Assembly (NCBI GenBank): GCA_035291665.1 | Contig: DATDRP010000002.1 | Coordinates: forward strand, 1,085 to 65,084 | From: Patescibacteria group bacterium | GTDB taxonomy: Bacteria; Patescibacteriota; Microgenomatia; UBA8517 | Direction of reading: 5' to 3' | Length of the DNA stretch: 64,000 nt | In this document: one piece after another, positions 14,197 to 29,814 of the stretch | Layout of the letters: every line of letters begins with the position of its first letter | Numbering within the stretch: the first letter of the stretch is position 1 | Notes under the pieces: model-generated | Databases searched by the model: none | What the model was told of the DNA's origin: nothing | The model's input: only the letters and a program-made list of their open reading frames with translations | Made by a program: the position numbers and the translations under genes

Positions 14197-16851
14197 TTAC
14201 TCACGGATTCTCTCCGGTAAGGGAAGTAGATTAACAATTTCCCATCCCCCGTAAAATTCGTCTTTTTTTATTTGAACATGCAAAAAGGTCCGTAAAAATT
14301 CTCTGTCATTCCGTTTTTTGAAATACAGGTCAAGCTCGGTCTTTTTATTCCGGTACAAATTTCCATCCAATTTACAATGAATAAGACCGTTTCGCTCCAA
14401 AGTTACAAAATGTGTTTGCGAAGGCTGAAAATATCTCCAAGAGGCAATGCTCCCAATTGTTTTTTGTAATTTTTTGTTCTCTTCAAATTGATAATCGGGA
14501 AATATTTCCTCTGAAGGATCACCTGTAAAACTGACACCGAAATGCTGCATTTGGTGAAGCCCCAAATCAATTGAATCAACTGCTGCATCTTTCTTCACCC
14601 ATAACAAATTGTATGCGGTTTTTTGAATGATATTTGAACCAATCAGGTCATAACCCAATATAACTTTTCCATTTTCTGAGTACGTTTTACTGAGGGTTTT
14701 TGCGGGTGTCAAAAGCCCAATCCCCGATTCTCTTCTGGCAGCATTGAGATACACTTGTAATGGATACATTCCACCTCTCCCGGTTGCTGCTCTTCTGAGT
14801 CTGGAACTCCAAAATTCTGCTGGTTCCTCTTGCTTTGAAACCATCTCATGCAAAACTTCTTCTGTTTTTGCATCAGAATGACCCCTGGCAAATCCATACC
14901 CCACCCTGAATACATCGCTGAAAAGCTGATCCGATATTCCTTTGGGGTATTTGGAAAATATTAAATTTTTAATTTTAACGAACAAAACATCCTGCTCTAT
15001 ACCCGGGAGATTTTTTGACAACATTTTCAAAACCCTGTACGAATTCTCTTCACCCAGACCTAAACTTCCGACAAGTTGCATAATTTGTTCAGGATATAAA
15101 AAAACGCCTTCCGTATTCTTTGTAATCTTGACCAATTCGGGGTAAGGAGCATATATACTTGTTATGTTTTCAATCCCCTGATAAAGAGAACTTTTCGCCT
15201 TGGCAGAAGCTGGTCGTATGCTTCCTTCGATATTTGAAAGATCTTTAAATTCAGGTTTTCTCCCCGCTTTTTTCAAAGATTTTCCCATATGATTTATGGC
15301 AAGCATTGCGGTTGGACTTTCAATGGTTCCGATTCCAATTGTTGAATTTCTATCGTAAAAAATAGAGTCCAGAGCTTTACTAATCTGTGTAGTATTTATT
15401 TCATAAGTGTTATTTACTTCTTCCACAATACCCAATCCGATATTCGTAGGGAAATCATATTTTGGTGCGTGTATCACATCTTCGGCATCTTTCTTCTGCA
15501 TCTGAAGTACACCCGAATGATATATGGGGGCAATATCAACAGCAACTACTCCGGGGTGTACTATCACTTTACCCTCAGGAATATCCGCTTTTTCAATAAT
15601 TTCTTTATCTTTGTCTTTGAGACCGGAATTCTTCAACGAATCCTTTCTTAAATGCGAAACTATTCCCAGCACATGTGTCCGACCGGAACGAGTTGCATAT
15701 TTTACGAGTTTGGGCCTTCCTGAATCTGAAACTGAGCGGTCAATATCCGGAAAATCAACCATCCCAACTGCACCCATTCTGTACTCATTGATGAACCTGT
15801 CAAAATTCGTTGCCATTGCATCACTTGTACCAAATAAAACACTCACAGCCTGGCTATTACGACCGCTACCTTCAATATTGTTTGCGATATTTTTATCAAT
15901 ACAAAATAGATGGTGATCATACGATTCCAAAATATACCCAGCCAGATTGTACTTGTTGATTAACCTAAGCTCCATATTAATTCTTTCAATTACTTCCGGA
16001 CCGACTTTTTTTTGTGAAAGTTTATTTTCAATCAAGGCTCGCAAAACCCCACCAGCGCTCATCCCGCTATCAAACCACTTCATGATCTCAGGCTCCAAAA
16101 TCTTCGGTTGGGGAATGGGAACGTTAATCCCATCAGTAATCTCAAACGAGCGCTGAATTACATCAAGCCCCAATTCATGATAAAGTTTATAAATTTCTTC
16201 TTTGTCCGGAAATGTATGGAGTTTTAGATCCAGCCCCTCATACAGCTGAGGAATACTTGGAAATGCTTTACGCAGTATTTGATAGATATGGGCATCTTTT
16301 TCAGTAGCAACAGTCGGATGTGTAAGCACAAGCTTATGGTATTTTTGTTCCAAATTAAGCAAATTCGGAAGTGTATCTTTTGAAGGTGGAGTGTCCACCG
16401 CAATAAATACACCTTTTTCTCTTAATAAACCTTCATCTTCCACGAAATTGCCTCTTACAAGAGTGATTACATCCGGCTGAATTATTTCATCCCGATTCAG
16501 ATTACGATTTTTTGAAGCCAGATCTGAAATATTTTTAAGGCCTTCGATTGATTTTGCAATGAAAGTTATTTTTTCCGGAGGTGATAAAAAGCTTCTTCTG
16601 ACAGCGGGAAGTTCAATTCCTGGAAGTGCCCTGACTTTGTTCAAATCACAAAGTGAAAGATAAGTCCAAATACCGAAAAAATTATGATCAGTCAAAGCAG
16701 AAGGAATTCCCAATCGGATTGACTCCTCAATTATGTTGAGGGGAGAAGCTGAAGCTTCGAATCTTTGTCCTTTAAAGTCTCTTATTCTGGAATATATACT
16801 GCACGTTCGAACTGCAGCATATTCGAATTGAGGTACCTTTTCCCGTTCCAT
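14197..16851 (-). CDS. family C DNA polymerase, DnaE-like, divergent and short (884 aa, degenerate PHP domain)
   Basis: GSGRNSQAVSVLFG...ATNFDRFINEYRMGAVGMVDFPDIDRS parallels the DnaE GRGSAAGSLV...LLFERFLNPER..MPDFDVDF block. PHP-like N-terminus lacks the His ladder (VRTCSIYS...TDHNFFG). A YGFARGHS block is also present. Confidence 0.55.
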   Translation of the reverse strand: MEREKVPQFEYAAVRTCSIYSRIRDFKGQRFEASASPLNIIEESIRLGIPSALTDHNFFGIWTYLSLCDLNKVRALPGIELPAVRRSFLSPPEKITFIAKSIEGLKNISDLASKNRNLNRDEIIQPDVITLVRGNFVEDEGLLREKGVFIAVDTPPSKDTLPNLLNLEQKYHKLVLTHPTVATEKDAHIYQILRKAFPSIPQLYEGLDLKLHTFPDKEEIYKLYHELGLDVIQRSFEITDGINVPIPQPKILEPEIMKWFDSGMSAGGVLRALIENKLSQKKVGPEVIERINMELRLINKYNLAGYILESYDHHLFCIDKNIANNIEGSGRNSQAVSVLFGTSDAMATNFDRFINEYRMGAVGMVDFPDIDRSVSDSGRPKLVKYATRSGRTHVLGIVSHLRKDSLKNSGLKDKDKEIIEKADIPEGKVIVHPGVVAVDIAPIYHSGVLQMQKKDAEDVIHAPKYDFPTNIGLGIVEEVNNTYEINTTQISKALDSIFYDRNSTIGIGTIESPTAMLAINHMGKSLKKAGRKPEFKDLSNIEGSIRPASAKAKSSLYQGIENITSIYAPYPELVKITKNTEGVFLYPEQIMQLVGSLGLGEENSYRVLKMLSKNLPGIEQDVLFVKIKNLIFSKYPKGISDQLFSDVFRVGYGFARGHSDAKTEEVLHEMVSKQEEPAEFWSSRLRRAATGRGGMYPLQVYLNAARRESGIGLLTPAKTLSKTYSENGKVILGYDLIGSNIIQKTAYNLLWVKKDAAVDSIDLGLHQMQHFGVSFTGDPSEEIFPDYQFEENKKLQKTIGSIASWRYFQPSQTHFVTLERNGLIHCKLDGNLYRNKKTELDLYFKKRNDREFLRTFLHVQIKKDEFYGGWEIVNLLPLPERIRE

Positions 16852-16904: not shown

Positions 16905-16949
16905 ATAACTCCATGCAACTGCACACCCTTAGGGTGATACATGCGTACA
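16905..16949 (+). repeat. REP-A element (CACCCTTAGGGTG hairpin plus ACACCCTTTACCC) 3' of the RAYT gene
   Basis: gcaactgcacacccttagggtgatacatgcgtacaccctttaccc. Near-identical copy at 19395-19440. Confidence 0.7.
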
Positions 16950-16963
16950 CCCTTTACCCAAAC

Positions 16964-17629
16964 TCAATCAATTAATAAATATTTAATATTTCCAAGTTTC
17001 CGTTGATAATCAACTTGATTAGCTACAAATTTTCGATACATTAATCTTGAGCCTATAATTTCAAGAATTAGTTTTGAATCTACAAGGGTCTCTTTTTTAC
17101 CGAGATAAATCGGAAATGAGGTTAAGACGCTGTCTTTTAATTCTTTTGTATCCATTAAGTATGATGTCACCGGATTCAAATGGATGTATCTGGATACATG
17201 AAGCAGGGTTTCATCACTGCTGATATGCTTAGCTTTAAACGGATTTTGAAATAGTGAACCATGTCTTTTGTTTTTAACATTAAAATATTTTGCATAGCTA
17301 TTTTGGAAATTCGATAAAAAATTGCGGATTCCATTTTCAGCTGTTTGTCTGAGAAGTAAATGAAAATGATCAGGCATAAAACAGTACGCGTAAATTTCTA
17401 CAATCTTTTTATCAAATGAATTATTTTTAAGATAGTCCAGTTTCTGAAAATCTTTTAATTTATTGAAAAAGGAGTACCTTATAGTTTGCTCATAATGGTA
17501 AAAGGAAATTAAATTTAGAGCTCTTTCTATGTCTCTTTTCTTCGAGAAAGTCCATTCATTGGCAGTTGTCCTATTGTAAACATGGTAGGTTTCACCATTT
17601 GCAAACACAAGGTTGCGTTTTCTCGGCAT
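16964..17629 (-). mobile_element. REP-associated tyrosine transposase (RAYT, IS200-like Y1 HuH transposase)
   Basis: YHVYNRT N-terminus, HuH motif MPDHFHLLL, catalytic Tyr motif SRYIHLNPV. Flanked on both sides by inverted REP-A copies. Confidence 0.75.
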
Positions 17630-17646
17630 AGAAGATTTATAATTTA

Positions 17647-17767
17647 TTTTACAGATTTGGGGGTAGGGTGTAAATACAATTTCACCCTTGGGGTGTAAGG
17701 ATTTATTATTTTACAGATTTGGGGGTAGGGTGTAAATACAATTTCACCCTTGGGGTGTAAGGATTTA
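17647..17767 (+). repeat. tandem duplication (2 x about 61 bp) of REP-A in inverse orientation, 5' of the RAYT gene
   Basis: ttttacagatttgggggtagggtgtaaatacaatttcacccttggggtgtaaggattta appears twice head-to-tail. Its reverse complement matches the 16905 copy. Confidence 0.75.
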
Positions 17768-18322
17768 CTCCGATAAAATTGCAGTTACAACGAAGCGTTT
17801 TGTATCAAAAAATCCGCTGCAAGTATAAAGAGTTATTCTTCTATCTTCGGTCGGATTAAGAATCGAGGATTGGTAAGGTCCCACCTCCTGAGTAAAATGG
17901 ACGACAAATTTTCTGGTTGCTCCGCTTGCAAAATCTACATAAATCTCGTCATCCGGCTTAACTTTTGTCAGACTTTTTAATAAATTTGGGAAATTATGCC
18001 CGTAGATGATGCTGTTTCCTATTTCACCGGGGACGGGTGACGTTTCCAAATAGGAAACACCCTTTTTTGTCGATTCCCATCGGTTATTCACAATCTTGGA
18101 AGGAATTATCGGTAAGCTGGAGTCAATTGAAGGAATCCTTAATATTGTAGGATTAGAAAAGTCTGCCGGAACATTCCCGCTTATCAAACTGCTATTTTGA
18201 ACTTCCGGTGCCTGATTAAATTGAAGTCTTACAGAACTATTCCTCTCCCATATCAAATATCCAAAAGCACCAAATCCGATTAAACCCAAAAGAATTAGAA
18301 GGTTGGCAAATGCTTTACGCAT
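17765..18322 (-). CDS. sortase family transpeptidase
   Basis: N-terminal TM anchor, His motif IYGHN, catalytic Cys motif TLYTC, conserved Arg near the C-terminus. Confidence 0.8.
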   Translation of the reverse strand: MRKAFANLLILLGLIGFGAFGYLIWERNSSVRLQFNQAPEVQNSSLISGNVPADFSNPTILRIPSIDSSLPIIPSKIVNNRWESTKKGVSYLETSPVPGEIGNSIIYGHNFPNLLKSLTKVKPDDEIYVDFASGATRKFVVHFTQEVGPYQSSILNPTEDRRITLYTCSGFFDTKRFVVTAILSE

Positions 18323-18354
18323 AAATAAATATAAAGAAAATTACTAACTTAAGC

Positions 18355-19188
18355 TTAGTTGGCTTTTTTACGAAGCGCAACTCCTGCACTTGTCAGAAGT
18401 AGTGAAGCTGCAAAGACTGAGTATAAAATAGCTGAATTTCCGGTTGTTGCCAATCCGAGGACCGATCCGCCTCCGATTACTCTGTTTGAAGAAGGTTCAG
18501 ATGGCATACAATTATTGACTGCGTAGACAACAAAGTAATAGGTTGCATTAGGATCAAGAGCCTCAACTGTATAGCTGGTTACGTTTCCGGTATTAGGTAC
18601 ACCGTAAGGGTATTCTCCCAATTTTGTTCCGTAAGCCAGTGTGTAATGAGTGGCAAATTCCTCTTTTGTCCAGGTTATGGTTGCTTTACTTCCTGACTTT
18701 ACGACTGAAAGGATTTCAGGTGCATCCGGCCTTCTTGAATCACAAACCGGTGCTCCGGGAGGATTGTGCGGAGGATTGTCAGGTGGATTTGATTTGCAGC
18801 TATAATTGGCATTTTGGGCCAAATAAGGTGAGGATTCCAATCCCCAATCTGCTCCTGACGGAACGTAGTACCAACCAAGTTTTGTTAAAATATCAATTGC
18901 TGTTTGTTCAAGAGAACTAATTTTCCACCAATTTGTTTGAATTCCGCTTCCGTCTTCAGCACAAAAACACTGAATAAGATTCTCTCCTGTGTAATATACT
19001 GCATCCGACCCGCTGACACCTGTTTCACGGCCGACAATATAATGAGTTCCTGAGTCATAACTTACTTTTTTTGTCCCTTGGGGATTTGAACATGAAGGAA
19101 AGCTTGGTGCCTCAGTTGCTGAAACTGCTGCGGCCAAGACAAATACTAAGATCACCTGTGCTACGATAAATGCGACTCTTTTCAACAT
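18355..19188 (-). CDS. secreted fibronectin type III domain protein with LAxTG-like (LATTG) C-terminal sorting signal
   Basis: Signal peptide, Pro-rich linker, FN3 domain (ATITWTKEEF...YYFVVYAVN). C-terminus LGLATTGNS, hydrophobic stretch, then RKKAN. Confidence 0.6.
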   Translation of the reverse strand: MLKRVAFIVAQVILVFVLAAAVSATEAPSFPSCSNPQGTKKVSYDSGTHYIVGRETGVSGSDAVYYTGENLIQCFCAEDGSGIQTNWWKISSLEQTAIDILTKLGWYYVPSGADWGLESSPYLAQNANYSCKSNPPDNPPHNPPGAPVCDSRRPDAPEILSVVKSGSKATITWTKEEFATHYTLAYGTKLGEYPYGVPNTGNVTSYTVEALDPNATYYFVVYAVNNCMPSEPSSNRVIGGGSVLGLATTGNSAILYSVFAASLLLTSAGVALRKKAN

Positions 19189-19394
19189 AAATTTTGTTTT
19201 TCTGGGCAGAAAACAGGGTACTAACTAACTATGGCGGAATTATATAACATTATAGGAAGTTATGTCAAGTATTTTATATATCTTGATATATCGACTATCA
19301 ACCAGTCTGGGATCAACATACAATGAGTGAGATACAAATAAATTTTTAATATAGGCTTATACTATTATATATACTTATCTCAAACACCATAATT

Positions 19395-19440
19395 GCACAC
19401 TTGCACACCCTTAGGGTGAAACATGCGTACACCCTTTACT
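19395..19440 (+). repeat. REP-A copy
   Basis: gcacacttgcacacccttagggtgaaacatgcgtacaccctttact. Confidence 0.7.
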
Positions 19441-19485
19441 CTCCGCATATAAACTTGATCATAACCTGAACGATTGAGGGTTTTC

Positions 19486-19528
19486 GGGGTAAAGGGTGTA
19501 AATATAATTTCACCCTTGGGGTGTAAAT
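19486..19528 (+). repeat. REP-A copy, inverse orientation variant
   Basis: ggggtaaagggtgtaaatataatttcacccttggggtgtaaatg. Pairs with the 19395 copy in a BIME-like arrangement. Confidence 0.65.
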
Positions 19529-19535
19529 GCATTGC

Positions 19536-20699
19536 TCACAACTCACAACTACTGACACTCTCTCCGTTTACGCACTGATCCGTATCTGAATTTCCATGAA
19601 GCGTATCCGTTTCGGTTCCTCCATCCAGAAAATCATTTCCTGAGTTTCCTCTCATCGTGTCGTTACCCGCTTCACCATAAACCTTATCGTTATCTGACCC
19701 CCCCCGAAGCTCATCATTCCCGGCTCCCCCGTAAATTTCATCATTTCCTGACTCACCGTCAATATTATCCTGTCCCTCGCCACCTTCAGCGTAGTCGTCA
19801 TCTGATCCGAGATCAATATTATCGTTTCCCAAACCTCCGTACGCTTTATCCTTCCCTGAACCTGTTTCTATTTTATCGTTCCCTTCCCCACCATAAACCG
19901 TGTCATTGCCATACCCGCCGTCTATCTTGTCATTTCCCGGTCCTCCCAAAATTACTTCATCGCCGGATTCACCGACCAGGTGGTCGTTTCCCTCACCGCC
20001 AACAATACAATCACTATCACTACTGGCCCAAACTTTATCATTTCCCCCATATGCCAGGATTAACTCCGGTTGAACCGACCCGTAAATACGCTCACTTTCG
20101 TCAGTTCCTTCAACAATCCTGCCAAAAGTCATATGCCGACACTCGGGTGGAATTTTATTGTCAGAAATTTCAGTCGACCAGGACAAATCAAATTTCAACC
20201 TGGCATTTTGATATTCATTACCCGCTTCGGGAGGAAATTTGACCGTCATACAAAAAGCTCTTTCCTGACCGGGATCAAAATTGCCCAAATTTACAGCTTC
20301 AAGCTCATCAAAAAAATTACGCATTGTCTTGAAGCCGTTTGATCCTCCATAAAAATCACCAAATCCGGTTTCATCAACAATCACTTCCAGTATTCCAGAA
20401 AAATCCTTCTCTTCGGATCCGAATATCGCTCGCATCAATACATCAAATGACTCAGTTTCATTTACATTTTTTATCTTGAAGCACCTCTTTTCAACGTCCC
20501 CCGGCTTCATGTCATCAAGTGTAAAAATGGGATCAGGCACTCCGCCACCTTCGTAAGTTACTTCAATAAGATCAACCTCCTCCACCTCGCTTGCTTGAGC
20601 CTGTTTTATAACAGTCATCACTCCGTAGGCCACAAATGGAAGCAACAATAATAACAATATTCTCTTATTCATTTTTATTCTATTTATTAGTTTCAGCAT
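19536..20699 (-). CDS. secreted RTX-type calcium-binding repeat protein
   Basis: Signal peptide. C-terminal half is about 12 tandem GGxGNDxI-type nonapeptide repeats (GGEGNDHLVGESGDEV..GGPGNDKIDGGYGNDTVYGG...). Confidence 0.7.
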   Translation of the reverse strand: MLKLINRIKMNKRILLLLLLPFVAYGVMTVIKQAQASEVEEVDLIEVTYEGGGVPDPIFTLDDMKPGDVEKRCFKIKNVNETESFDVLMRAIFGSEEKDFSGILEVIVDETGFGDFYGGSNGFKTMRNFFDELEAVNLGNFDPGQERAFCMTVKFPPEAGNEYQNARLKFDLSWSTEISDNKIPPECRHMTFGRIVEGTDESERIYGSVQPELILAYGGNDKVWASSDSDCIVGGEGNDHLVGESGDEVILGGPGNDKIDGGYGNDTVYGGEGNDKIETGSGKDKAYGGLGNDNIDLGSDDDYAEGGEGQDNIDGESGNDEIYGGAGNDELRGGSDNDKVYGEAGNDTMRGNSGNDFLDGGTETDTLHGNSDTDQCVNGESVSSCEL

Positions 20700-20835
20700 A
20701 TTCTTACTATATACACCGCTTCGACCTTGCTCAGTGTCTTTACTTACAGGGGTTCCCCTTTAAAGGTCGATACTCAAATTTCTAAGTACTCTAATTAACC
20801 TAATTTCTAATTAAAATCCAATACCCAATTACTAA

Positions 20836-22452
20836 TTAAGGTACACAAACATTATTGTTTGATATTCCTTTCGAAACACCAGTGCATGGAAGAGTCCATA
20901 TTGTATTTCTGTCCGTATTTCTTCCAGTAGACTTATCGTCCGTCAAAGCACCAAAAGTGTGTTGATCGATAATTTGACCAGATAGATTAATCAATTTCAA
21001 TGTTTCCCCGCCTGTATTATTTAACCACCCTTCTGATCTTTCATATACTGAATAAGTTAAGGAGTTAGCTGTACCTAGGGATGAGACATTTTCAATGTTG
21101 TTTGCAGCATCCACTAAAGTCCAGTTGGTAAGATCGATATTTTCTAAACTTGGATTATATAATTCCACCCACTCAGTTGTAAAAGTTGTATCGGGATTAG
21201 AAAGTAGTTCATTCAAAATTATATTCGATCCATATCCGGGAGTCGGTCTTTCGCGGACAATAAAGTCGCTCGGTTCAAAATCATCCCCCGTTACGGAATC
21301 AATGCCAATTGGCACTCTTTCGATAGATTGATTTTGGGATGGTATTGCATCCCCGTTAACGTTCCATCGGGTAACATCAATTACAGTTGTGCCATTCGTA
21401 TCAATTAACTTAAGCTGCCCTACGTCTATATTAAGAGTTCCTCCCAAATTTCCAGTTTGAGTTCCGTTATCGTCATAACAGCTATTCCAGATCGCAGAAC
21501 TATGGGCAAGAAGCAGAAATTCACCGGGTTGAATCGTCAAATTATTCGCTGTAACTAAATCGACGGTATTAGTACCATCTGTAATCTTGTAATTTTTAGG
21601 ATTAACGGCAAAATTATAACCGTTATAAAGCTCGATCCATTGGGCTTCAGTGTTACCCTGGGAACAACTCGAGTCAGGTAAAACTTCGTTGATTACCAAA
21701 GTTTGTGCAATTCGAGTCGGTGGCGACCACTCTCCAGCCCGGAATAGATTGCCAAGAGATCCTTCGGTGTCGGAGAAGAATGATGCCGAAAAAGAAAGCA
21801 TCACAATAGCTGCTCCGAAAACAGGAATGAAAGTAAACATTTTTTTGACTCCGCGTTCTGAATCTACGGCGTGTGCTTGACCTTTCCGATTTTTAATCTT
21901 TTTGACAATCTCCGATATCAAACTTCTCAGCTCTTCATATATAAGAATAGTAGCCGGGACTATAACTAATAGTATAAAACCCCAGGGTTTTTTGGCGTAA
22001 TTCGCCAAATACCCCACATAAGGCACAGCCAGCTGTACTTTGCCGATGATCTGGTCTGGCCTCACACTTGCGGAGTCAAGATCTTCATTGGCATCCCCTT
22101 TTGTAATAAAAACAGGATCTTTACCGATACCGTCCGGGAATTTTTTATAGGCAATTCTATGCGTAACAACGTTCTTCCCACGCCCGCTTACATCAAAAGT
22201 GACAACATCTCCGCTGACATAATTTTCCGATTTGACCACAAAGACAACACTGCCAACTTTTACTCCGGGCTCCATTGAACCGGATTCAACAATATACATT
22301 CGGGGGAGTATTGATTGCATCGATTGAAGCTGGTTTCCTTTTTGAAGATTGTCAATAAATTCTGCTCCATTCTGACCCAGCAGAAAAAACAAAGCTACCC
22401 AGATGGGGAGTACCAGTATTCCAAGTACTATCAGTAATATTTTCTTTAACAT
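20836..22452 (-). CDS. SipW-type signal peptidase I fused in frame to a SipW-cognate signal peptide and two lamin-tail domains (LTD)
   Basis: N-terminus ESGSMEP (catalytic Ser box) and KGDANEDLD box, TM segment, then SFSASFFSDTEGSLGNLFRAGEW (SipW-cognate motif), then INEVLPDSS...WIELYN and LNELLSNPD...WVELYN LTD motifs. Internal ATG at 21838-21840 with GGAG upstream. Confidence 0.7.
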   Translation of the reverse strand: MLKKILLIVLGILVLPIWVALFFLLGQNGAEFIDNLQKGNQLQSMQSILPRMYIVESGSMEPGVKVGSVVFVVKSENYVSGDVVTFDVSGRGKNVVTHRIAYKKFPDGIGKDPVFITKGDANEDLDSASVRPDQIIGKVQLAVPYVGYLANYAKKPWGFILLVIVPATILIYEELRSLISEIVKKIKNRKGQAHAVDSERGVKKMFTFIPVFGAAIVMLSFSASFFSDTEGSLGNLFRAGEWSPPTRIAQTLVINEVLPDSSCSQGNTEAQWIELYNGYNFAVNPKNYKITDGTNTVDLVTANNLTIQPGEFLLLAHSSAIWNSCYDDNGTQTGNLGGTLNIDVGQLKLIDTNGTTVIDVTRWNVNGDAIPSQNQSIERVPIGIDSVTGDDFEPSDFIVRERPTPGYGSNIILNELLSNPDTTFTTEWVELYNPSLENIDLTNWTLVDAANNIENVSSLGTANSLTYSVYERSEGWLNNTGGETLKLINLSGQIIDQHTFGALTDDKSTGRNTDRNTIWTLPCTGVSKGISNNNVCVP

Positions 22453-22539
22453 GCTACAAATGGCTACGAATTATTTAAAAAATCGGTTTCAAATAGTTCA
22501 TTAAACTGCTACAGATAGTTTACTGCCGACAACTTTATT

Positions 22540-22758
22540 TCATTTCCTCGTAAACATTCTTACTCTTGTTATTACTTTTCCGTCTTCATTGGGCCTCTCT
22601 GACAGCTGGACTTCAAATCCTAATCCGTCTTCGTTTTTCTCAACCAAATTCGAGGCTAATTTTGCCTCCTCATCACTGCCTCCTGCCGTCTTCACCCCGA
22701 TGAACGCCAGAATTTGAGAAGGCGAGTGGGTGTTTATATCAAGCATTTCGTCAGTCAT
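22540..22758 (-). CDS. hypothetical small protein (72 aa)
   Basis: One of three small overlapping co-directional ORFs between the TasA-like gene and the SipW fusion gene. Confidence 0.35.
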   Translation of the reverse strand: MTDEMLDINTHSPSQILAFIGVKTAGGSDEEAKLASNLVEKNEDGLGFEVQLSERPNEDGKVITRVRMFTRK

Positions 22759-22994
22759 GGTTCATTATTTTCGTGAAATACACTGAAACTGATCTTTTCA
22801 TTCGGTTTGTAAGTTTCGTTAACTACAATTCCAAAAGTTGTATCATTTTCGGGATCCAGTTCGTAAAGAAGTGCTGCCAGCGTTGCAGTTTTCTTATTTC
22901 CGCACAAAGACTCAACAAATGTATAAGCTAAACTTTGCGATTCATTCCAGCTTTTCCCTTCAGAAAAATCAGGATTTATTTTTTCGGCACACAT
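22755..22994 (-). CDS. hypothetical small protein (79 aa)
   Basis: 4-nt overlap with the downstream ORF, suggesting translational coupling. Confidence 0.35.
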   Translation of the reverse strand: MCAEKINPDFSEGKSWNESQSLAYTFVESLCGNKKTATLAALLYELDPENDTTFGIVVNETYKPNEKISFSVFHENNEP

Positions 22995-23191
22995 AATTTT
23001 CTTCTTGACGGGTTTACTTTACCGTCATTGACATTAACCGGCATAGATAGAATCCTTTTATATTCACTTTCAAGAGCCCGATAGGTTTCATATGTAATTG
23101 TTCCGGTAAGATACTGATCCGTTAGATCAATTAAACTCAAATCCTCTAATCGGACCTCTACCCCGTTATTCAAATGTTGCTCGATTATCAT
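22976..23191 (-). CDS. hypothetical small protein (71 aa)
   Basis: Overlaps the next ORF by 19 nt, co-directional. Confidence 0.35.
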   Translation of the reverse strand: MIIEQHLNNGVEVRLEDLSLIDLTDQYLTGTITYETYRALESEYKRILSMPVNVNDGKVNPSRRKLCVPKK

Positions 23192-23227
23192 TCGCGTTCA
23201 TACAATTTACTAATCAACCAATTAGGC

Positions 23228-23302
23228 AGACCACGTACTTCGACACTTTAAAGTACCTGGTCTGCCCTTCACCCTGAGTAATCTCATTGGGTGAAGAAAA
23301 CA
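23228..23302 (-). repeat. two consecutive stable hairpins 3' of the TasA-like gene
   Basis: ggcagaccacgtacttcgacactttaaagtacctggtctgcc (9+6 bp stem) and cttcaccctgagtaatctcattgggtgaag (8-bp stem with the CACCC/GGGTG core). Confidence 0.45.
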
Positions 23303-23308
23303 GACTTG

Positions 23309-24667
23309 CTAAGTACCCGGCAGTTCTGTACCACAAAACGTTTGGACACCATCCAAATCATATGCATCTGCCGTAGCTTCGAAAAGACTCTTATCGCTTT
23401 CGTCGGTAATTCTCAGGTATGCTGCCCAGGGTAGCCCTGATGTACTCAAGTCCAAAAATGAATCCCGAGCGGTACTAGCAGAAACTACGAAAAAGTTGAC
23501 TCCGTTCTGACTGGCTTCAACTTTGATCTTTTCATCGGGATAAACTCCTCCCGTTACTTCAAAGACCCTGAAGTCAAAACCCGCCATATCAACTATCGGA
23601 TTTGCAAAAGATAACACAATATTTCCTCCGCCTATATTTTCAGCTCCAAATCCCAAGCTGAAAAAAGTATCTGCAATAACTGGTGAATCTGAAGGAGCAC
23701 CCGTACTTTCCGGAGCACCCAGTGCATCATTCGGATCATCTCTATCTGCCAAAACTGCCGTCCCGTCTTTACGTAATCCTTGAGCAGACGACACAACACC
23801 TGTTGCGTATCCGGGGATACAAGCCACAGGAGTCGGTGTAACCGTTATTTCAGGAGGATTGCAAAGGAACCGGTCGTTATGTCTTGCTTGTTCAGCAAAA
23901 AACGTTAAATCAACCATAAAGTTATCTGTTTGAGATTGATTATCCAGTCCCGATCCATCACAAGTGAAACCACTACCTCTGTCATCGGGGGTACCATCTC
24001 CTTGTTGCAGCGGTGTTTCACCGATATCTCCATAACAGAAATATTTTGCTATATAGAATTTTTCAGGACCAATTGGCCCAAATGACCCACCGGAATCCCC
24101 TTTCAACCATTTTTCCTGTCCACCGAAAACGCTGAGAGCGTTGCCTCGTGTCAATACTTCTTCTTCTGTTTCAAATACATTATCTCCGTCATCTATCCAA
24201 AACACGAAGTTCAAATTTTGACCCAGCTCCCCAAGGTTTTCACCGGGATCTTGACATAATCCATTCTCATCAAGCATTTCGGGTTCGGTACAAGAAAGAT
24301 CGTTGTTTGCAGTAACTTTGAAGTCTCCGCAAAGCCATGCTGGATTGGCGACAGAAAACGAAATTGTGTCTTCTTCCCAATCGCCAGGCTTTAGGTCATG
24401 CAGATCAAAAAAAAGTTCTCCATCCAAACTTTTAGACCGCCATGTGCAGGAACATTCGTTCCCATCTTTATTTTCTCCATCCCAAAAACCTTCAATACAG
24501 GCATTCCCATTGTAATAACAAGTGTTATCAATCTCCAAATCAATTGCACCTGCTTGAAACAGGTTTCCGGATGAAGTTTCTTCATCAGAGAAGAAAGCTC
24601 CGGTCACCGCAAATGCGGTTAATCCAATTAATCCAAGTGTTATCAAACTAAATAATATTTTTTTCAA
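23309..24667 (-). CDS. secreted TasA/camelysin-like protein with SipW-cognate signal peptide, TTG start
   Basis: AFAVTGAFFSDEETSSGNLFQAGAIDL. Paralog of the 25152-26306 protein (shared NFVFWIDDGDNV, GSGFTCDG, QTDN..DL.FFA.Q.R.N..FLC). Start codon TTG at 24665-24667 preceded by AGGGAGGAGGTGA. Confidence 0.65.
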   Translation of the reverse strand: MKKILFSLITLGLIGLTAFAVTGAFFSDEETSSGNLFQAGAIDLEIDNTCYYNGNACIEGFWDGENKDGNECSCTWRSKSLDGELFFDLHDLKPGDWEEDTISFSVANPAWLCGDFKVTANNDLSCTEPEMLDENGLCQDPGENLGELGQNLNFVFWIDDGDNVFETEEEVLTRGNALSVFGGQEKWLKGDSGGSFGPIGPEKFYIAKYFCYGDIGETPLQQGDGTPDDRGSGFTCDGSGLDNQSQTDNFMVDLTFFAEQARHNDRFLCNPPEITVTPTPVACIPGYATGVVSSAQGLRKDGTAVLADRDDPNDALGAPESTGAPSDSPVIADTFFSLGFGAENIGGGNIVLSFANPIVDMAGFDFRVFEVTGGVYPDEKIKVEASQNGVNFFVVSASTARDSFLDLSTSGLPWAAYLRITDESDKSLFEATADAYDLDGVQTFCGTELPGT

Positions 24668-24684
24668 TTTTTATTTCACCTCCT

Positions 24685-24724
24685 CCCTGTGAAGTAGCGG
24701 TCTGCGCACTTCACGGGATCCCGT
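24685..24724. repeat. family C GC-rich hairpin (CCCTGTGAAGTAG...CACTTCACGGGATCCCGT) abutting the SD of the TasA-like gene
   Basis: 10-bp stem. Related copies at 24997, 25055, 26385, 26514 and 57503. Confidence 0.5.
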
Positions 24725-24856
24725 CCTGTTAGATAATTTCATATCTCATGGGACTGGGACCTCCATTCTAACTTCAGTTTACGGATGAAGCTCCGGATCT
24801 TTGAAAAATAAAAACTTAAAATTCAAAGCTCAAAACCATAATTTCAAACTTACTGA

Positions 24857-24914
24857 CACACCCTACGGGAGAAATCCTTATTAGATATTTCAAAGGTATT
24901 TCACCCCAAGGGTG
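24857..24914 (+). repeat. REP-B element (about 57 bp)
   Basis: cacaccctacgggagaaatccttattagatatttcaaaggtatttcaccccaagggtg. Confidence 0.7.
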
Positions 24915-24927
24915 TTTAAATTTTTAA

Positions 24928-24970
24928 TTTTATTCCGGGTTTCGGAGGGGCAAGCCTCCCGAAACCTTTG
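24928..24970. repeat. 11-bp-stem hairpin (ggtttcggagg...cctcccgaaacc)
   Basis: Inverted repeat read directly from the sequence. Sits in the 480-bp hairpin-dense spacer between the two TasA-like genes. Confidence 0.4.
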
Positions 24971-24996
24971 TCAAACTCTTTTTAAGGATTTTGCCA

Positions 24997-25032
24997 CCCC
25001 TGTGAGATAGTTTTTCACCACCTCACGGGGTG
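24997..25032. repeat. family C hairpin copy
   Basis: cccctgtgagatagtttttcaccacctcacggggtg. Confidence 0.45.
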
Positions 25033-25054
25033 ACTGAATTTTTCAAATTTTCTC

Positions 25055-25092
25055 CGACGAAGTAACGATTAACGTACTTCACGGAGTCCCGT
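25055..25092. repeat. family C hairpin copy
   Basis: cgacgaagtaacgattaacgtacttcacggagtcccgt. Confidence 0.45.
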
Positions 25093-25151
25093 AAGATATT
25101 AATTTATCTTACTGGGAGAAATTAGATTCCTTAACTAACTTCCTTGCGTGA

Positions 25152-26306
25152 CTAATTCGGTGCACAATCCAAATGAAAAGTGATACTGTTTCCCAAACTA
25201 TCTACCAAATCATGCACAACGTATCCTGTTTCACCAGCTGGGAATGTGTAATGTGGATAAACCGGATAGTTAAATCCATCCACTGCTAGAGCTCCTGGTT
25301 TAGCCATTCCATTACCTCCAACCAGATTAAGGCTTGAGTCGATTCCCCCACCGACAACATGTGTTCCGGCAGGACACGACCAACCAGCCCAACCTCCATC
25401 GCCAAATCCATCTTGAGTCCTACTTATTCTTGTAGGTTCAACAGGCCAAGTTGGTTTCCAATCAGAACAAAGGAAATTCGGATTGTTCCTGTGTTGGACC
25501 GCGTAGAATTGCAAATCACCGACAACTATGTCTGTTTGAGCTGCATTGTCTACTGGTTCGCCATCACAAGTGAATCCTGTTCCTCTTGCCAATGGACCGT
25601 TAGTTGCACCTTCAAGTTTTCCTTGTCCATCTTGAGCAACCGGATTTCTGGCTAAAGTTCCAAAACACCAGTATTTCCCGATGTGTACGGTTTCTCCACC
25701 TGGAAGAGGATTACCAGTACTCTGATCAGCCAATGCAATTTGACCCGAATCACCCATTCCACTCAGTGGTCCACTTAAGAACACACTTTCTGGACCGTTT
25801 TCCCCAATTTCGTAAACATTATCTCCATCATCCCACCAGAATACGAAATTCACTTCTTCGTCCAGTTCGCCATCTTCAAGTAATGGGTCTGCCCCGACTG
25901 TTAGATCGTCTCCAGTTTCAGGTTCAGTGTAAGTGTTGTCATTGTCATCTGTCAGCCTTGCAGCTGCACATACCCATGCATCATTATTATTTACATGAAC
26001 CGAAATTGTGTCTTCACCGTAATCTCCCGGTTTAAGATCAACAAAGTCAAAGAATTTTTGAACTGTTAAGTCCGCCAATTCCCATGATGTATTTTTACTT
26101 GCAACAAAAGCACCAATTGGTCTTTCGTATCCAGGAATGTTCCAATCGATTGCATAGCTTTCGTTATCGATCAAAAGGTCAATTGCACCTGCAACAAATG
26201 TATTTCCAGTTGATGTCTCTTCATCAGAGAAGAATGCACCGGTTGCGAGAACCGCACCTATTGCAACTACTCCGATAGAAAACGCACTTAATAAAATTTT
26301 TTTCAT
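25152..26306 (-). CDS. secreted TasA/camelysin-like protein with SipW-cognate signal peptide (paralog)
   Basis: MKKILLSAFSIGVVAIGAVLATGAFFSDEETSTGNTFVAGAIDL. Start taken at ATG 26304-26306 with SD AAAGGAGGTGA; the ORF track extends it to 26354. Confidence 0.65.
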   Translation of the reverse strand: MKKILLSAFSIGVVAIGAVLATGAFFSDEETSTGNTFVAGAIDLLIDNESYAIDWNIPGYERPIGAFVASKNTSWELADLTVQKFFDFVDLKPGDYGEDTISVHVNNNDAWVCAAARLTDDNDNTYTEPETGDDLTVGADPLLEDGELDEEVNFVFWWDDGDNVYEIGENGPESVFLSGPLSGMGDSGQIALADQSTGNPLPGGETVHIGKYWCFGTLARNPVAQDGQGKLEGATNGPLARGTGFTCDGEPVDNAAQTDIVVGDLQFYAVQHRNNPNFLCSDWKPTWPVEPTRISRTQDGFGDGGWAGWSCPAGTHVVGGGIDSSLNLVGGNGMAKPGALAVDGFNYPVYPHYTFPAGETGYVVHDLVDSLGNSITFHLDCAPN

Positions 26307-26317
26307 ATATTTCACCT

Positions 26318-26338
26318 CCTTTCTTCTTCGAAGAAAGG
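26318..26338 (-). promoter_or_regulatory. 5'UTR hairpin whose 3' arm overlaps the Shine-Dalgarno sequence of the TasA-like gene
   Basis: cctttcttcttcgaagaaagg gives a 9-bp perfect stem. On the mRNA its 3' arm continues directly into AGGAGGTGA. Confidence 0.45.
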
Positions 26339-26384
26339 AACCCGTTGGATGCATTTATGCTATCCAACTGGGTACCTCCTCCCC

Positions 26385-26575: not shown

Positions 26576-26836
26576 CTAACTGTGACCACCAAAATAGTTT
26601 TTCAATCTACCTTTGATATACCGTTTTCCCCAAGCACTTTTTAGATAAACTTCCCTTTTATATGCATCTTTTAAATTTAATGATGCTTCGTAATAAACAA
26701 GTTTAAAAGGTCTCCTAAATTTCGTCGCTTTCACTAACCCTTTGTTGTGTCGTTCTAACCGTTTCTTTAAATCGTTTGATGTTCCTGTATATAACTTTTT
26801 ATCCTTCAAACTCTGTAATACATATACAAAATACAT
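26576..26836 (-). CDS. GIY-YIG nuclease domain protein (small, Slx1/YhbQ-like)
   Basis: MYFVYVLQSLKDKKLYTGTSNDLKKRLERHN is the GIY...YIG motif with the following Arg/His. Confidence 0.7.
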   Translation of the reverse strand: MYFVYVLQSLKDKKLYTGTSNDLKKRLERHNKGLVKATKFRRPFKLVYYEASLNLKDAYKREVYLKSAWGKRYIKGRLKNYFGGHS

Positions 26837-26875
26837 ACAGTAAAATGCATACCCTTTACCCCTTGCGCTTAACTC

Positions 26876-26932
26876 TCACCCTTCGGGAGAAATCCTTATT
26901 CTATATTTAAAGGTATTTCACTCCAAGGGTGG
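26876..26932 (+). repeat. REP-B element
   Basis: tcacccttcgggagaaatccttattctatatttaaaggtatttcactccaagggtgg, preceded by a REP-A fragment (accctttacccc). Confidence 0.7.
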
Positions 26933-27226
26933 TTATTTTATTAAACCCAGCTCACGTTTTCTTTGTTCTTCTTGTCTTTTATATTCTGCAATTTGCCGAT
27001 CCTGTTCTTGTGATAATTCATTGCGAACAATTTGCAATCTGGCAATAGCTAAATATTTATTTCCCTCGATTCCCGCTTCTCTTACTCTGGCAGATTCTTC
27101 CAAATTACCTTGCTCATTCAACAAGGCTTCATATTCTTTCAAAATAACGCTATCCTGTCTCCGGCATACTTCCGCAATTTTGTATATCATCGGATTATTT
27201 TCTCCTTCGAATTTAATTCCTACCAT
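26933..27226 (-). CDS. hypothetical small protein (97 aa), paralog of 27319-27588
   Basis: N-terminus MVGIKFEGENNPMIYKIAEV compared with MARIKNEGEKNPFEAKMEEV in the neighbour. Confidence 0.4.
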   Translation of the reverse strand: MVGIKFEGENNPMIYKIAEVCRRQDSVILKEYEALLNEQGNLEESARVREAGIEGNKYLAIARLQIVRNELSQEQDRQIAEYKRQEEQRKRELGLIK

Positions 27227-27245
27227 AGGATATGTTTTTTTATAC

Positions 27246-27302
27246 TCACCCTTCGGGAGAAATCCTTATTCTAAATTTCTTGGTATTTCACCCCAAGGGT
27301 GG
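27246..27302 (+). repeat. REP-B element
   Basis: tcacccttcgggagaaatccttattctaaatttcttggtatttcaccccaagggtgg. Confidence 0.7.
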
Positions 27303-27318
27303 TTATGTCAGCAGTAAT

Positions 27319-27588
27319 CTATTTTCGAAAACTCTTTTCAACTGTTATTCCCGGTTCTGCTGAATTCAATTCATCAAAAGCTATCCGGCTTTTTGCGATT
27401 GGCAAGGTCAAGGCAAGTTGAATCATAAGCTTCCCTATCAATGCCGCGTTAGTGAAATCTTTATTTTTTACTAATATACGTTTATATTCTGACAAAATCT
27501 CTTGAGCAGACCTCTGACTCACTTCTTCCATCTTTGCCTCAAATGGGTTCTTTTCTCCTTCATTTTTTATTCTTGCCATAACATTCAC
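27319..27588 (-). CDS. hypothetical small protein (89 aa), paralog of 26933-27226
   Basis: See the paralog. Flanked by REP-B on the 3' side and a REP-B half-site on the 5' side. Confidence 0.4.
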   Translation of the reverse strand: MNVMARIKNEGEKNPFEAKMEEVSQRSAQEILSEYKRILVKNKDFTNAALIGKLMIQLALTLPIAKSRIAFDELNSAEPGITVEKSFRK

Positions 27589-27595
27589 CTCTTTA

Positions 27596-27612
27596 TTTCA
27601 CCCCAAGGGTGG
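27596..27612 (+). repeat. REP-B half-site (tttcaccccaagggtgg)
   Basis: Matches the 3' arm of REP-B. Confidence 0.5.
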
Positions 27613-27633
27613 TTATTTGTACCGCTTCCAACT

Positions 27634-27661
27634 AAAAAACCCCAACGTTCGCTGGGGTTTT
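27634..27661. terminator. bidirectional rho-independent terminator-like hairpin
   Basis: aaaaaaccccaacgttcgctggggtttt: GC stem flanked by an A-run and a T-run. Confidence 0.5.
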
Positions 27662-27847
27662 AATGTTTGTATTAGGTTGAATTGGCCGCAGAAGGAATGT
27701 GGAGTATTGAGGCAGAAACTATCAGTCATAGTTATTCTTTATACAAAGCGTATATAGTTTTGTCAATAGGTCTTTCTATATAAATCTTATAGTTATCTTA
27801 ATGGGGATATATACTAATGATTCTTTCTGCCCTAAGTATCCCATAGG

Positions 27848-28432: not shown

Positions 28433-28435
28433 AAC

Positions 28436-28476
28436 TCCACACCCTAAGGGTGAAATTGTACTCACACCCTTTACCC
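28436..28476 (+). repeat. REP-A variant
   Basis: tccacaccctaagggtgaaattgtactcacaccctttacccc. Confidence 0.65.
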
Positions 28477-28490
28477 CGATCGTTAACATT

Positions 28491-28547
28491 CACCCTACGG
28501 GAGAAATCCTGATTCTATATTTAAAGGTATTTCACCCCAAGGGTGGT
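28491..28547 (+). repeat. REP-B element
   Basis: caccctacgggagaaatcctgattctatatttaaaggtatttcaccccaagggtgg. Confidence 0.7.
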
Positions 28548-28661
28548 TGGGGTGGTGTAGTTAAAACCATTTGTAAAAATTACCCCGACCAGAAATTATT
28601 TTTGATCGTAAATATGTTATAGGGTATAATACGTTTATTATAATAAAATCCAAACCCCCGG

Positions 28662-29267: not shown

Positions 29268-29275
29268 AAAGAACT

Positions 29276-29316
29276 ACACACCCTAAGGGTGAAATTGTAT
29301 TCACACCCTTTACCCC
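29276..29316 (+). repeat. REP-A variant
   Basis: tacacaccctaagggtgaaattgtattcacaccctttacccc. Confidence 0.65.
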
Positions 29317-29328
29317 GTTCTTAAACAT

Positions 29329-29385: not shown

Positions 29386-29393
29386 TTGAGTAT

Positions 29394-29789: not shown

Positions 29790-29814
29790 TATTATAGGCT
29801 GTATTACAACATAA

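Follow-up and report, generated by a model that had tools for sequence, protein, structure and literature searches.

A putative TasA/SipW fibre operon and a neighbouring sortase cassette in Patescibacteria

The fibres closest to the subject of this work are known from Bacillus subtilis, in which residues 28-38 of TasA form the donor strand and TapA is predicted to give the first strand (PMC9674648). It is the N-terminus of TapA that is donated, and the tapA gene is translationally coupled to sipW (PMC10151520); as the B. subtilis nucleator the protein combines a complete Ig-type fold with a low, SipW-like abundance (PMC10151520; PMC9674648). Here, a comparable locus is described in a stretch of 64,000 nucleotides, further termed the window, from a member of Microgenomatia (GenBank assembly GCA_035291665.1, contig DATDRP010000002.1), in which two TasA-like proteins (TAS1 and TAS2), a SipW-type signal peptidase and an RTX protein are encoded beside a sortase and its substrate. 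We consider it rather probable that these genes constitute two modules: a TasA-superfamily fibre operon found throughout the candidate phyla radiation (CPR; 19536-26306), and an autonomous sortase cassette (17765-19268).

The CPR, or Patescibacteria, are mostly uncultured episymbionts, and attachment to the host is a central open question of their biology. To our knowledge, the only CPR filaments with molecular identities so far are type IV pili and the newly reported Pam pili. The latter, described in a preprint of June 2026, are a different filament with Ig-like pilins and PapD-like chaperones (bioRxiv 10.64898/2026.03.03.709456). Sortases are near-ubiquitous in Microgenomates (PMC6744442), and TasA homologues (PF12389) in Patescibacteria were mentioned in one sentence by Wang et al. 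2022 (PMC9245690). In the literature, which is incompletely searchable, no published account was found of a CPR TasA/SipW operon, a SipW-starter fusion, an acceptor-only RTX cap or a cassette of the kind described below; no papers pairing SipW with CPR names were found, and the combination of 'TasA' with CPR returned mostly TIGR-Tas and that single passing mention of PF12389. The locus would represent a third, widespread CPR surface-fibre system; the labels that databases give to its parts go no further than 'signal peptidase I', 'hypothetical protein' or 'SipW-dependent signal peptide protein'.

TasA-like subunits and a conserved operon core

The initial annotation of the window had placed nine open reading frames (ORFs) of the locus on the minus strand, and all nine were recovered there with unchanged coordinates (Table 1). 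Two of them had been taken for paralogous TasA/camelysin-like proteins, which is borne out: TAS1 and TAS2 share 41% identity, their N-termini both read GAFFSDEETS(S/T)GN(L/T)F(Q/V)AGAIDL, and they have the invariant motifs KPGD, DDGDNV.E and Q.D..F..Q in common. TAS2 is composed of a SipW-type signal peptide with the donor-strand motif GAFFSDEETSTGNTFVAGAIDL, a TasA-like N-domain, which matches the family N-domain hidden Markov model (HMM) with E 1.7e-109, and a small C-terminal domain of unassigned fold; the Shine-Dalgarno sequence AGGAGGTGA lies upstream of its start at 26306. The family alignment is marked by the signal/donor motif, KPGD, the invariant W.DDGDNV.E and several conserved cysteines, about 10 of which lie in the N-domain, and the donor-strand segment is the best-conserved part of the family. 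The W.DDGDNV.E motif resembles a Ca2+-binding loop, and the cysteines suggest stabilisation by disulfides. Ca2+-triggered assembly is reportedly a property of AbpX, another protein of the TasA superfamily, which may bear on this loop-like motif.

On N-terminal fragments of TAS1 and TAS2 the model of SipW-cognate signals, TIGR04088, scores 20.6 and 20.0 bits (cutoff 19), with an alignment that spans positions 2-33 of the 34 in the model. Precomputed PF12389 (Peptidase_M73) hits exist for many of the homologues with 40-65% identity, and homologues are named 'SipW-dependent signal peptide' by NCBI/JGI. The proposal of a TasA/camelysin fold was confirmed by structure models of moderate confidence, in which the TasA-type jelly-roll was found and TasA was the best structural match; the Sulfolobus thread (5.4), Pyrodictium CanX (4.6) and Pyrobaculum AbpA (4.1) come next, so that the top neighbours are all donor-strand filament subunits. 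In the monomer models the predicted local distance difference test score (pLDDT) of residues 11-42 is < 50, which would agree with a strand that is not docked and proves nothing. The TAS profile did not recover TasA among PDB sequences. The C-terminal domain of TAS1, which the initial annotation had overlooked, is a putative glycan-binding, lectin-like module. Across TAS relatives the C-terminal module is CBM32-like, vWA, SpaA-like, a lamin-tail domain (LTD) or absent; vWA is found in P0008 and P0102, and the SpaA-like PF19403 in P0040, P0075 and others.

The RTX nonapeptide-repeat protein is likewise present as annotated, with 118.6 bits for PF00353 (HemolysinCabind) and 14 nonapeptides in a strict 9-residue register. 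It is an RTX-repeat protein and appears not to be an RTX toxin, since the RTX-toxin model NF033943 reaches 82.8 bits vs. a cutoff of 1000, toxin and serralysin models in general stay far below their cutoffs, the N-terminus carries a Sec-type signal, and family scans of the locus proteins gave no hit to a type I secretion system. Its first ~185 residues form a compact domain, termed RtN, whose TasA-like nature was missed at first. Among 177,635 PDB sequences the RtN family profile (A2) matches only TasA (8AUR, E 0.015; 5OF1, E 0.058), and the alignment keeps the order of two blocks, strand-PGD-N at the N-terminus and N.YQ at the C-terminus. PF12389 is matched by 11 of the 24 RtN family members (best E 5e-6; 15.3 bits for the RtN of the window), and when RtN is compared with the TAS profile by hhalign, the match extends along the entire domain (87% probability, E 3.8e-6). 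In both the PDB-TasA and the TAS-profile alignments RtN begins past the AFFSD...GN segment. All 24 N-termini carry an ordinary signal sequence, usually with Ala just ahead of the first strand, and no motif; accordingly, none of the RtN ORFs was matched by the motif HMM described below. Since the motif is missing and the equivalent TasA residues 28-38 are the donor strand, RtN is, judged from the alignments, a TasA-type domain without a donor strand. Its partners vary by lineage and include RTX, LTD, FnN (the N-terminal domain of the sortase substrate) or larger modules, as for tip adhesins.

Relatives were collected with an alignment of the TasA-like family (A1) as the anchor and a library of one genome per species; two search patterns only gave 369 tblastn-confirmed stretches, and homologous protein clusters numbered at least 662. 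The synteny set is made of the 78 best loci with informative names, scored at the ORF level with phmmer and HMMs, and all of them are from CPR (Woesebacteria, Levybacteria, Gottesmanbacteria, Zambryskibacteria, Kaiserbacteria, Paceibacterota and others). SipW is present and adjoins the TAS genes in 73 of these 78 species-level loci, and in 71 of 72 loci with both, SipW shares its strand with all TAS genes and is preceded by them, which establishes the synteny of the locus that the initial annotation had left to comparison. TAS copies number one to four per locus, mostly two or three. Of the 25 loci with RtN, 17 have its start no more than 120 nt to either side of the SipW stop, often with an overlap, thus the RTX protein belongs to the operon, as had been supposed. 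The closest relative, a Woesebacterium (L005), has the gene order of the window, i.e., TAS (C2-type), TAS (C1-type), SipW-LTD and RtN-RTX, and possesses neither the three tiny ORFs of the window nor a sortase. Because gene order and RtN position are kept in relatives, the operon core is regarded as conserved with the RTX protein included.

Five loci of Woesebacteria type (L005, L007, L010, L036 and L064) contain a second, short SipW paralogue (218-266 aa), encoded divergently on the opposite strand ahead of the TAS genes, and in L005 there is also another short gene of RtN type (223 aa) next to it; in the window, REP (repetitive extragenic palindromic) and cassette DNA takes the place where these relatives have the second SipW. 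Some TPA_asm metagenome-assembled genomes with the operon are titled 'uncultured Gammaproteobacteria' or 'Pseudomonadales' (e.g., L007, L012, L020, L022), which are probably mislabels.

The SipW extension, the proposed assembly and its simplest rival

The presence of a SipW-type signal peptidase was confirmed with TIGR02228 (archaeal/ER-type signal peptidase I; 92.3 bits vs. a cutoff of 51.85), and the segments GSMEP and VTHR are read directly as holding the catalytic Ser and His. The Bacillus SipW equivalog NF046067 gives 87.1 bits vs. a cutoff of 190; it represents a ~190-aa architecture with two transmembrane segments (TM), whereas the window SipW has 538 aa with a third hydrophobic segment, a motif and two LTDs. 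Canonical Bacillus SipW ends about where NF046067 ends, short of this extension. The fusion, i.e., the third membrane segment, the internal AFFSD-type motif and the two LTDs, was missed by the initial annotation. Hydrophobic segments are located at residues 1-30, 157-176 and ~204-223, and the linker between the second and the third is basic (9 K/R vs. 3 D/E); hydropathy and linker charge would fit an in-to-out third membrane segment, directly after which the internal motif SFFSDTEGSLGNLFRAGEW is placed (residues 224-242, DNA 21727-21783).

As TIGR04088 did not match the internal motif, a family-specific motif HMM was built from TAS N-termini only and searched against 7,524 ORFs. It recovers 172 TAS ORFs, scores the internal SipW site of the window with i-E 2.5e-7 and finds such a site in 28 SipW ORFs of other loci. 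Of the 120 closest SipW homologues, 87 have a length of at least 215 aa, and the internal site is present in 62 of these; PF00932 (LTD) is present in ~40 of the 120. What follows the motif measures 5 to ~200 aa and may be a short tail (5-20 residues), LTD domains or a TasA-like module, the last in L018, L047, L008 and L017; in L018 (11378-12946) SipW is fused to a complete TasA-like module. Owing to this range of tails, the strand rather than the LTD is the constant element, and the constant feature is a strand-bearing SipW extension, predicted from the topology to be displayed outside the membrane. With its donor strand, with or without an Ig-like LTD body, the CPR extension may be seen as an analogue of TapA that is joined to SipW, a likeness drawn from functional features.

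The initial annotation had looked for tapA-like factors elsewhere, in three tiny overlapping ORFs between TAS1 and SipW. These exist where they had been placed (22976-23191, 71 aa; 22755-22994, 79 aa; 22540-22758, 72 aa), with overlaps of 19 and 4 nt, and are real sequence, as they are unchanged in independent assemblies of the same population. The proposed function does not hold: they have no hydrophobic segment or signal peptide, no SipW/donor motif, and no credible family hit in Pfam, NCBIfam or PHROGs; in 124 related loci, homologues were confined to contigs of the same strain, and for the 72-aa ORF an exhaustive HMMER search of 1.84 billion representatives gave no homologue. In relatives the corresponding 856-nt gap is missing or filled by a short TAS gene. 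The tiny ORFs are lineage-specific ORFans, outside the conserved system and not TapA-like, and a TapA-like role is better assigned to the SipW extension. Two further ideas on their origin were rejected. Paralogy of the 79- and 72-aa ORFs, seen by eye, was not supported by BLASTP, in which the 72-aa ORF showed no similarity to either of the other two, and no TAS HMM or phmmer match in the region spoke for a frameshifted TAS remnant.

In the assembly that we propose, TAS subunits would be exported by Sec, cleaved by SipW and polymerised by donor-strand exchange, and each TAS1 subunit in the fibre would show its lectin-like domain, giving a multivalent adhesive fibre that would suit an episymbiont. 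The strand borne by SipW, a donor with no TasA groove of its own, would fill the groove of the first subunit, in the role of TapA, and the fusion would couple cleavage and nucleation at the membrane; the strand would then either stay at the membrane, where it would anchor the fibre, or be released by a cut to act as a starter with an LTD tag. The last free strand would be taken up by RtN-RTX, which has a groove and no donor and whose Ca2+-dependent beta-roll would form the cap; by analogy it is probably a tip adhesin in the manner of FimH. Taken as a whole, this architecture, in which over much of the CPR the TasA peptidase is fused to a starter strand (a membrane-tethered TapA), an acceptor-only cap at the opposite end carries RTX, LTD or FnN, and fully polar adhesive pili, ordered from tip to base and with a lectin on every major subunit, arise without chaperone, usher or ATP, is put forward tentatively. 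Host adhesion that depends on glycans and Ca2+ is suggested by the lectin-like and RTX modules, and the likely function is attachment of the episymbiont to its host or to matrix glycans. The architecture leads to predictions on how TasA-type fibres start, are capped and are anchored, matters that are unsettled even in Bacillus.

A number of points weigh against the fibre operon and its assembly as outlined. Polymerisation, cleavage and complexes are deduced from genes and sequences. Full-length TAS1 and TAS2 score 15.8 and 15.6 bits with TIGR04088, under the cutoff of 19, so the SipW-cognate motifs claimed by the initial annotation are recognised only narrowly, in fragments and not in entire proteins; the internal SipW site gives no TIGR04088 score at all. 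PF12389 stays below its cutoff of 22.5 for both TAS1 (19.9 bits) and TAS2 (16.2 bits), and the PDB E-values that link RtN to TasA (above) are weak. The synteny loci were picked by TAS1 similarity, the sets are biased by retrieval and the statistics ignore phylogeny; the co-occurrence of RtN with the SipW extension is only moderate (odds ratio 4.1, P 0.009, phylogeny uncorrected), and many loci have neither by the criteria used. Finally, the motif is both cleavage determinant and donor strand, hence the extension may be just a fused substrate.

The last point makes up the simplest rival, which holds that the extension is a peptidase-substrate fusion, or a pseudo-substrate or autoregulatory tail, that a cut at A223/S224 frees a soluble LTD-LTD protein with a task other than fibre nucleation, and that the RTX protein is an independent Ca2+-binding surface protein in which a TasA-like domain is present by chance. 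The motif does coincide with the class-defining cleavage region of SipW substrates (TIGR04088), its partners vary (LTD, TasA-like modules, short tails), and in other lineages LTD is joined to RtN or TAS, as expected of a shuffled adhesion module. However, in tail-less variants, which have 5-20 aa past the motif (P0131 and the L012 SipW, on long contigs), a cut would free the strand alone, and the strand-like pattern behind the cleavage point, F-F/Y-S-D-x-E-x-S-x-x-N-x-F/L-x-A, is conserved as strongly as in the polymerising subunits. The position of RtN directly behind SipW is fixed, and in TapA the N-terminal strand is the essential part (PMC9674648), which sets a precedent for the extension. 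We therefore regard the mere fused substrate as unlikely and prefer the strand-bearing starter.

The sortase cassette and the remaining rivals

The sortase domain is confirmed by PF04203 (80 bits vs. a cutoff of 26.6) and its TLYTCSG motif, and TIGR01076 stays at 36.7, below 39.35. The subclassing called for by the initial annotation assigned it to no curated class: in tests of classes A-F (models C, D, E, F and GN) the class HMMs give 29-41 bits vs. cutoffs of 140-166. LATTG resembles the preference of class E sortases, and class E membership itself fails here. The substrate is the FN3 protein (fn3 E 2e-9) and ends as had been claimed, with the C-terminus LGLATTGNSAILYSVFAASLLLTSAGVALRKKAN, i.e., LGLATTGN, 22 hydrophobic residues and RKKAN (residues 246-277; DNA 18355-18453). 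Upstream of its FN3 domain (residues 155-234) lies FnN (about residues 30-131; DNA 18796-19101), a domain with a GIQTNWW motif and a conserved Cys, for which profile searches gave no relatives in Pfam, NCBIfam or PDB.

A search of metagenomes with the FnN-domain alignment (A3) resulted in 46 loci, in 42 of which the FnN gene is directly followed by a sortase; the remaining four stop at contig edges. The FnN homologues examined end with LGLATTGN or SLASTGN, a hydrophobic segment and a basic tail, and the FN3 insert is confined to the lineage group of the window. Sortase and LATTG substrate are an autonomous two-gene cassette. In the window it is bracketed by REP elements (17644-17767 and 19402-19533), and a perfect match to the sigma-70 consensus suggests a separate cassette promoter; the site is a consensus match only, and promoter-like sites overall are not above the shuffled expectation. 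In the proposed model the sortase would attach the FnN-FN3 protein to the cell wall, recurrently and not obligatorily beside the fibre operon. FnN is probably an adhesion or docking domain, shown on the wall via sortase or on the fibre cap. RtN-LTD fusions stand beside divergent FnN-sortase cassettes in L095, L096, L102, L104 and L109.

The initial annotation had read the locus as a single combined anchoring and fibre system. In its strongest form, all genes would encode one integrated machine, in which the sortase makes a covalent link between peptidoglycan and the TasA-like fibre, either by way of the FN3/LATTG protein as basal subunit or by acting on the fibre subunits, with the tiny ORFs as TapA-like factors. 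For such a machine speak the adjacency and common direction of all genes, the L052 ORF 12774-13601, in which FnN is fused to the RtN cap domain at the position of RtN-RTX, and the linkage in relatives: TasA/SipW/RtN genes adjoin the cassette in 7 of the 21 FnN-sortase loci whose flank measures 8 kb or more (binomial P ~5e-5 vs. an assumed background of 5%; the figure is rough and the loci are partly redundant), and the cassette lies directly beside the operon in L026, L040 and L106. On the other hand, the cassette is alone in the other 14 long loci and missing in 69 of the 78 TAS-anchored loci, among them L005, the closest relative (9/78 have a sortase at a distance of up to 10 kb). The FN3 protein, as the only ORF with a sorting signal in the 64-kb window, has neither donor motif nor TasA domain; TAS1, TAS2, RtN-RTX and the LTD module lack an LAxTG signal. 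REP hairpins and the perfect promoter consensus part cassette from operon, and the tiny ORFs have neither signal peptide nor homologues. A direct role of the sortase in fibre anchoring is not supported, as the fibre proteins bear no sorting signal. What stands of the combined system is a link between cassette and operon that is real but loose, and the integrated machine appears decidedly unlikely.

It may also be asked whether the TasA-like proteins polymerise at all, or whether they are monomeric lectins or adhesins, or camelysin-type (M73) proteases, with SipW as an export peptidase only. The Pfam family is named Peptidase_M73, the TAS N-domain is far larger than TasA, with insertions and many conserved cysteines, and the fold similarity is modest. 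Against this, no HExxH or other metalloprotease motif was seen by direct reading of the TasA-like sequences, the donor-strand segment is the part that is conserved best, the nearest structures are donor-strand filament subunits without exception, and two to four paralogous subunits together with donor-only and acceptor-only variants are typical of pilus loci. A non-polymerising family is, in view of this, quite improbable. That the locus is the Microgenomates version of the Pam pilus system is scarcely credible: Pam pilins are likewise CPR-specific, two-domain, beta-rich proteins of 39-55 kDa that polymerise by strand exchange and are reported from Saccharimonadia and Microgenomatia (bioRxiv 10.64898/2026.03.03.709456), but in its published description the Pam operon encodes PapD/FimC-like chaperones together with a tip pilin and an RbmA-like anchor, an inter-domain linker serves as donor strand and the paper makes no mention of SipW, TasA or signal peptidase, whereas in the window SipW and an N-terminal donor motif are present, TasA is the best structural match, and no PapD/FimC-like chaperone family was matched among the scanned locus proteins.

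Layout of the locus and comparison with described systems

The features of the locus and of its border are collected in Table 1. Exact-sequence look-up led to an NCBI metagenome-assembled genome (HLE48781-89) and to groundwater metagenome contigs with the same gene order, and no further TAS, second SipW or other sortase-substrate genes were found in the 64-kb window.

Table 1. Features of the TasA/SipW locus, the sortase cassette and the adjoining border (window coordinates)
Feature	Position	Strand	Description
TAS2 gene	25152-26306	-	384 aa from Shine-Dalgarno-supported ATG; ORF reaches 26354 (400 aa)
REP-type palindromic element	24859-24921		core CACCCCAAGGGTG; TAS2-TAS1 spacer; terminator-like hairpin 24902-24914
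TAS1 gene	23309-24667	-	452 aa, TTG start
TAS1 N-terminal part	23852-24667	-	residues 1-272: SipW-type signal peptide, donor-strand motif, TasA-like jelly-roll
TAS1 C-terminal domain	23309-23815	-	residues ~285-452; galactose-binding-like / discoidin / CBM32-type jelly roll
Three small overlapping ORFs	22540-23191	-	71, 79, 72 aa; within 856-nt TAS1-SipW gap
SipW fusion gene	20836-22452	-	538 aa
SipW peptidase module	21925-22452	-	residues 1-176: TM1, catalytic domain, TM2; S26B, archaeal/ER-type
SipW C-terminal extension	21727-21924	-	basic linker, third hydrophobic segment, internal motif SFFSDTEGSLGNLFRAGEW
Two LTD (lamin-tail, Ig-like) domains of SipW fusion	20836-21726	-	after internal motif; PF00932 80.8 bits
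RTX protein gene	19536-20699	-	387 aa; alternative start 20672
RtN, N-terminal part of RTX protein	20145-20699	-	ordinary signal peptide (…KQAQA/SE) and TasA/camelysin-type domain
RTX beta-roll region	19536-20144	-	14 GGxGxDxUx nonapeptides, residues 226-349
Two REP-type elements	19402-19533		directly past RTX stop; terminator-like hairpin 19511-19523
Sigma-70 consensus	19239-19268	-	TTGACA-18-TATAAT, 12/12; ~50 nt upstream of FN3 gene
Sortase substrate (FnN-FN3 protein)	18355-19188	-	277 aa: signal peptide, FnN, FN3, LATTG sorting signal
Sortase gene	17765-18322	-	membrane-anchored; YGHN and TLYTCSG motifs
Two identical tandem 62-nt REP units	17644-17767		between sortase and RAYT genes; locus boundary
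RAYT gene	16964-17629		PF01797 39.6 bits (cutoff 23)

The boundaries proposed in the initial annotation, RAYT with REP palindromes on one side and a repeat-rich cassette region from ~26.8 kb on the other, are found as stated there. The putative RAYT gene, which passes PF01797, scores 51.3 bits with NF047646, below the cutoff of 80. It is flanked by REP-like palindromes with CACCC-N3-GGGTG cores, which recur over 16.9-29.9 kb in spacers of the locus and its flanks (16920-16957, 17644-17767, 19402-19533, 24859-24921 and 26817-29877); the third and fourth of these, inside the locus, had been missed. The family cores are CACCCTTGGGGTG, CACCCTTAGGGTG and CACCCTTCGGGAG, and several members fold as terminator-like hairpins. 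A 50-aa ORF (19380-19532) that overlaps the REP elements is probably a translation of repeats ('HPKG' peptides). The cassette-like region (26576-30300) adjoins a GIY-YIG gene (26576-26836) and contains 5-7 copies of a composite repeat of 58-119 nt at a spacing of 370-1244 nt, each following a small ORF; neither Pfam nor PHROGs gave a match for these ORFs (97, 89, 194, 201 and 131 aa), of which those of 194 and 201 aa look alike by eye. An Rfam scan of 16.5-30.5 kb gave no match. Further away, a 301-aa ORF (39239-40144), the only additional hit in the search of the window for more such genes, is situated next to genes for an M23 peptidase and FtsX; it is weakly similar to the LTD region of the SipW fusion (phmmer E 2.7e-6) and has no Pfam hit and no SipW motif. 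An ORF of 884 aa annotated as hypothetical (14197-16851) matches DNA polymerase III alpha only weakly, with 31.7 bits for the NTPase domain and 23.2 bits for the finger domain, and may be a highly divergent or truncated DnaE-like protein.

Among described systems, the cassette is closest to class E (LAxTG) sortases and the dedicated sortase-substrate pairs of Gram-positive bacteria, with which it shares the TLxTC motif, the N-terminal membrane anchor, one sortase beside one substrate, and a substrate with LA(T/S)TG, hydrophobic segment and basic tail; it differs from them in the low scores with all NCBIfam class models and in the FnN partner domain, which stands apart from known families and structures. 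The TasA-superfamily filaments of archaea (Pyrobaculum AbpA/AbpB bundling pili, Sulfolobus threads, Pyrodictium AbpX/cannulae and Tafi pili) are also composed of jelly-roll subunits joined by donor-strand complementation, their loci often include a signal peptidase I and minor tip or anchor subunits, and Ca2+ plays a part in some (AbpX). However, a SipW-substrate fusion, an RTX cap and lectin-type C-terminal domains are undescribed there, and sequence similarity to the CPR family is detectable only via profiles or structure.

The likeness to chaperone-usher (Fim/Pap) pili is one of working logic and not of homology. Tip adhesins of FimH type have an acceptor groove, no donor strand and an adhesin domain, which parallels RtN-RTX, and in these pili too another component gives a strand without lengthening the fibre; in the CPR locus, in contrast, there is no usher and no periplasmic chaperone, the organism is monoderm, and processing would be by SipW rather than by the general pathway. 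Pam pili, described in Ca. Mycosynbacter amalyticus (bioRxiv 10.64898/2026.03.03.709456), resemble the proposed fibre as a CPR-specific, Sec-exported, strand-exchange filament with pilin paralogues, predicted tip and anchor, and a presumed part in host contact. They differ in Ig-like pilins, a linker donor strand and membrane-anchored PapD-like chaperones, with no SipW/TasA fold reported, and by this description the TasA/SipW system appears to be separate from Pam.

The closest comparison is with tapA-sipW-tasA of B. subtilis and sipW-calY1-calY2 of B. cereus, where likewise an S26B/ER-type peptidase is encoded together with TasA-superfamily proteins. In common are a SipW-cognate motif at the signal/mature junction (borderline by TIGR04088 in the window), which here too would double as N-terminal donor strand, several paralogous subunits, and a minor donor-strand component with a non-TasA, Ig-like body, which is TapA there and the LTD module here. 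In the window the proteins score below the PF12389 and Bacillus SipW equivalog cutoffs and the gene order is reversed, with the subunits first. The CPR subunits are about twice as large, cysteine-rich, with the invariant DDGDNV.E and appended modules (CBM32-like; vWA, SpaA-like and LTD in relatives), and SipW is followed by an acceptor-only TasA-like RTX cap, a component undescribed for Bacillus. The TapA-like element is not a separate gene but is fused to the SipW C-terminus behind the third membrane segment. So far the association of TapA with SipW in Bacillus has been hinted at only by translational coupling, and the SipW-starter fusion, if true, would be direct 'Rosetta-stone' evidence for it.

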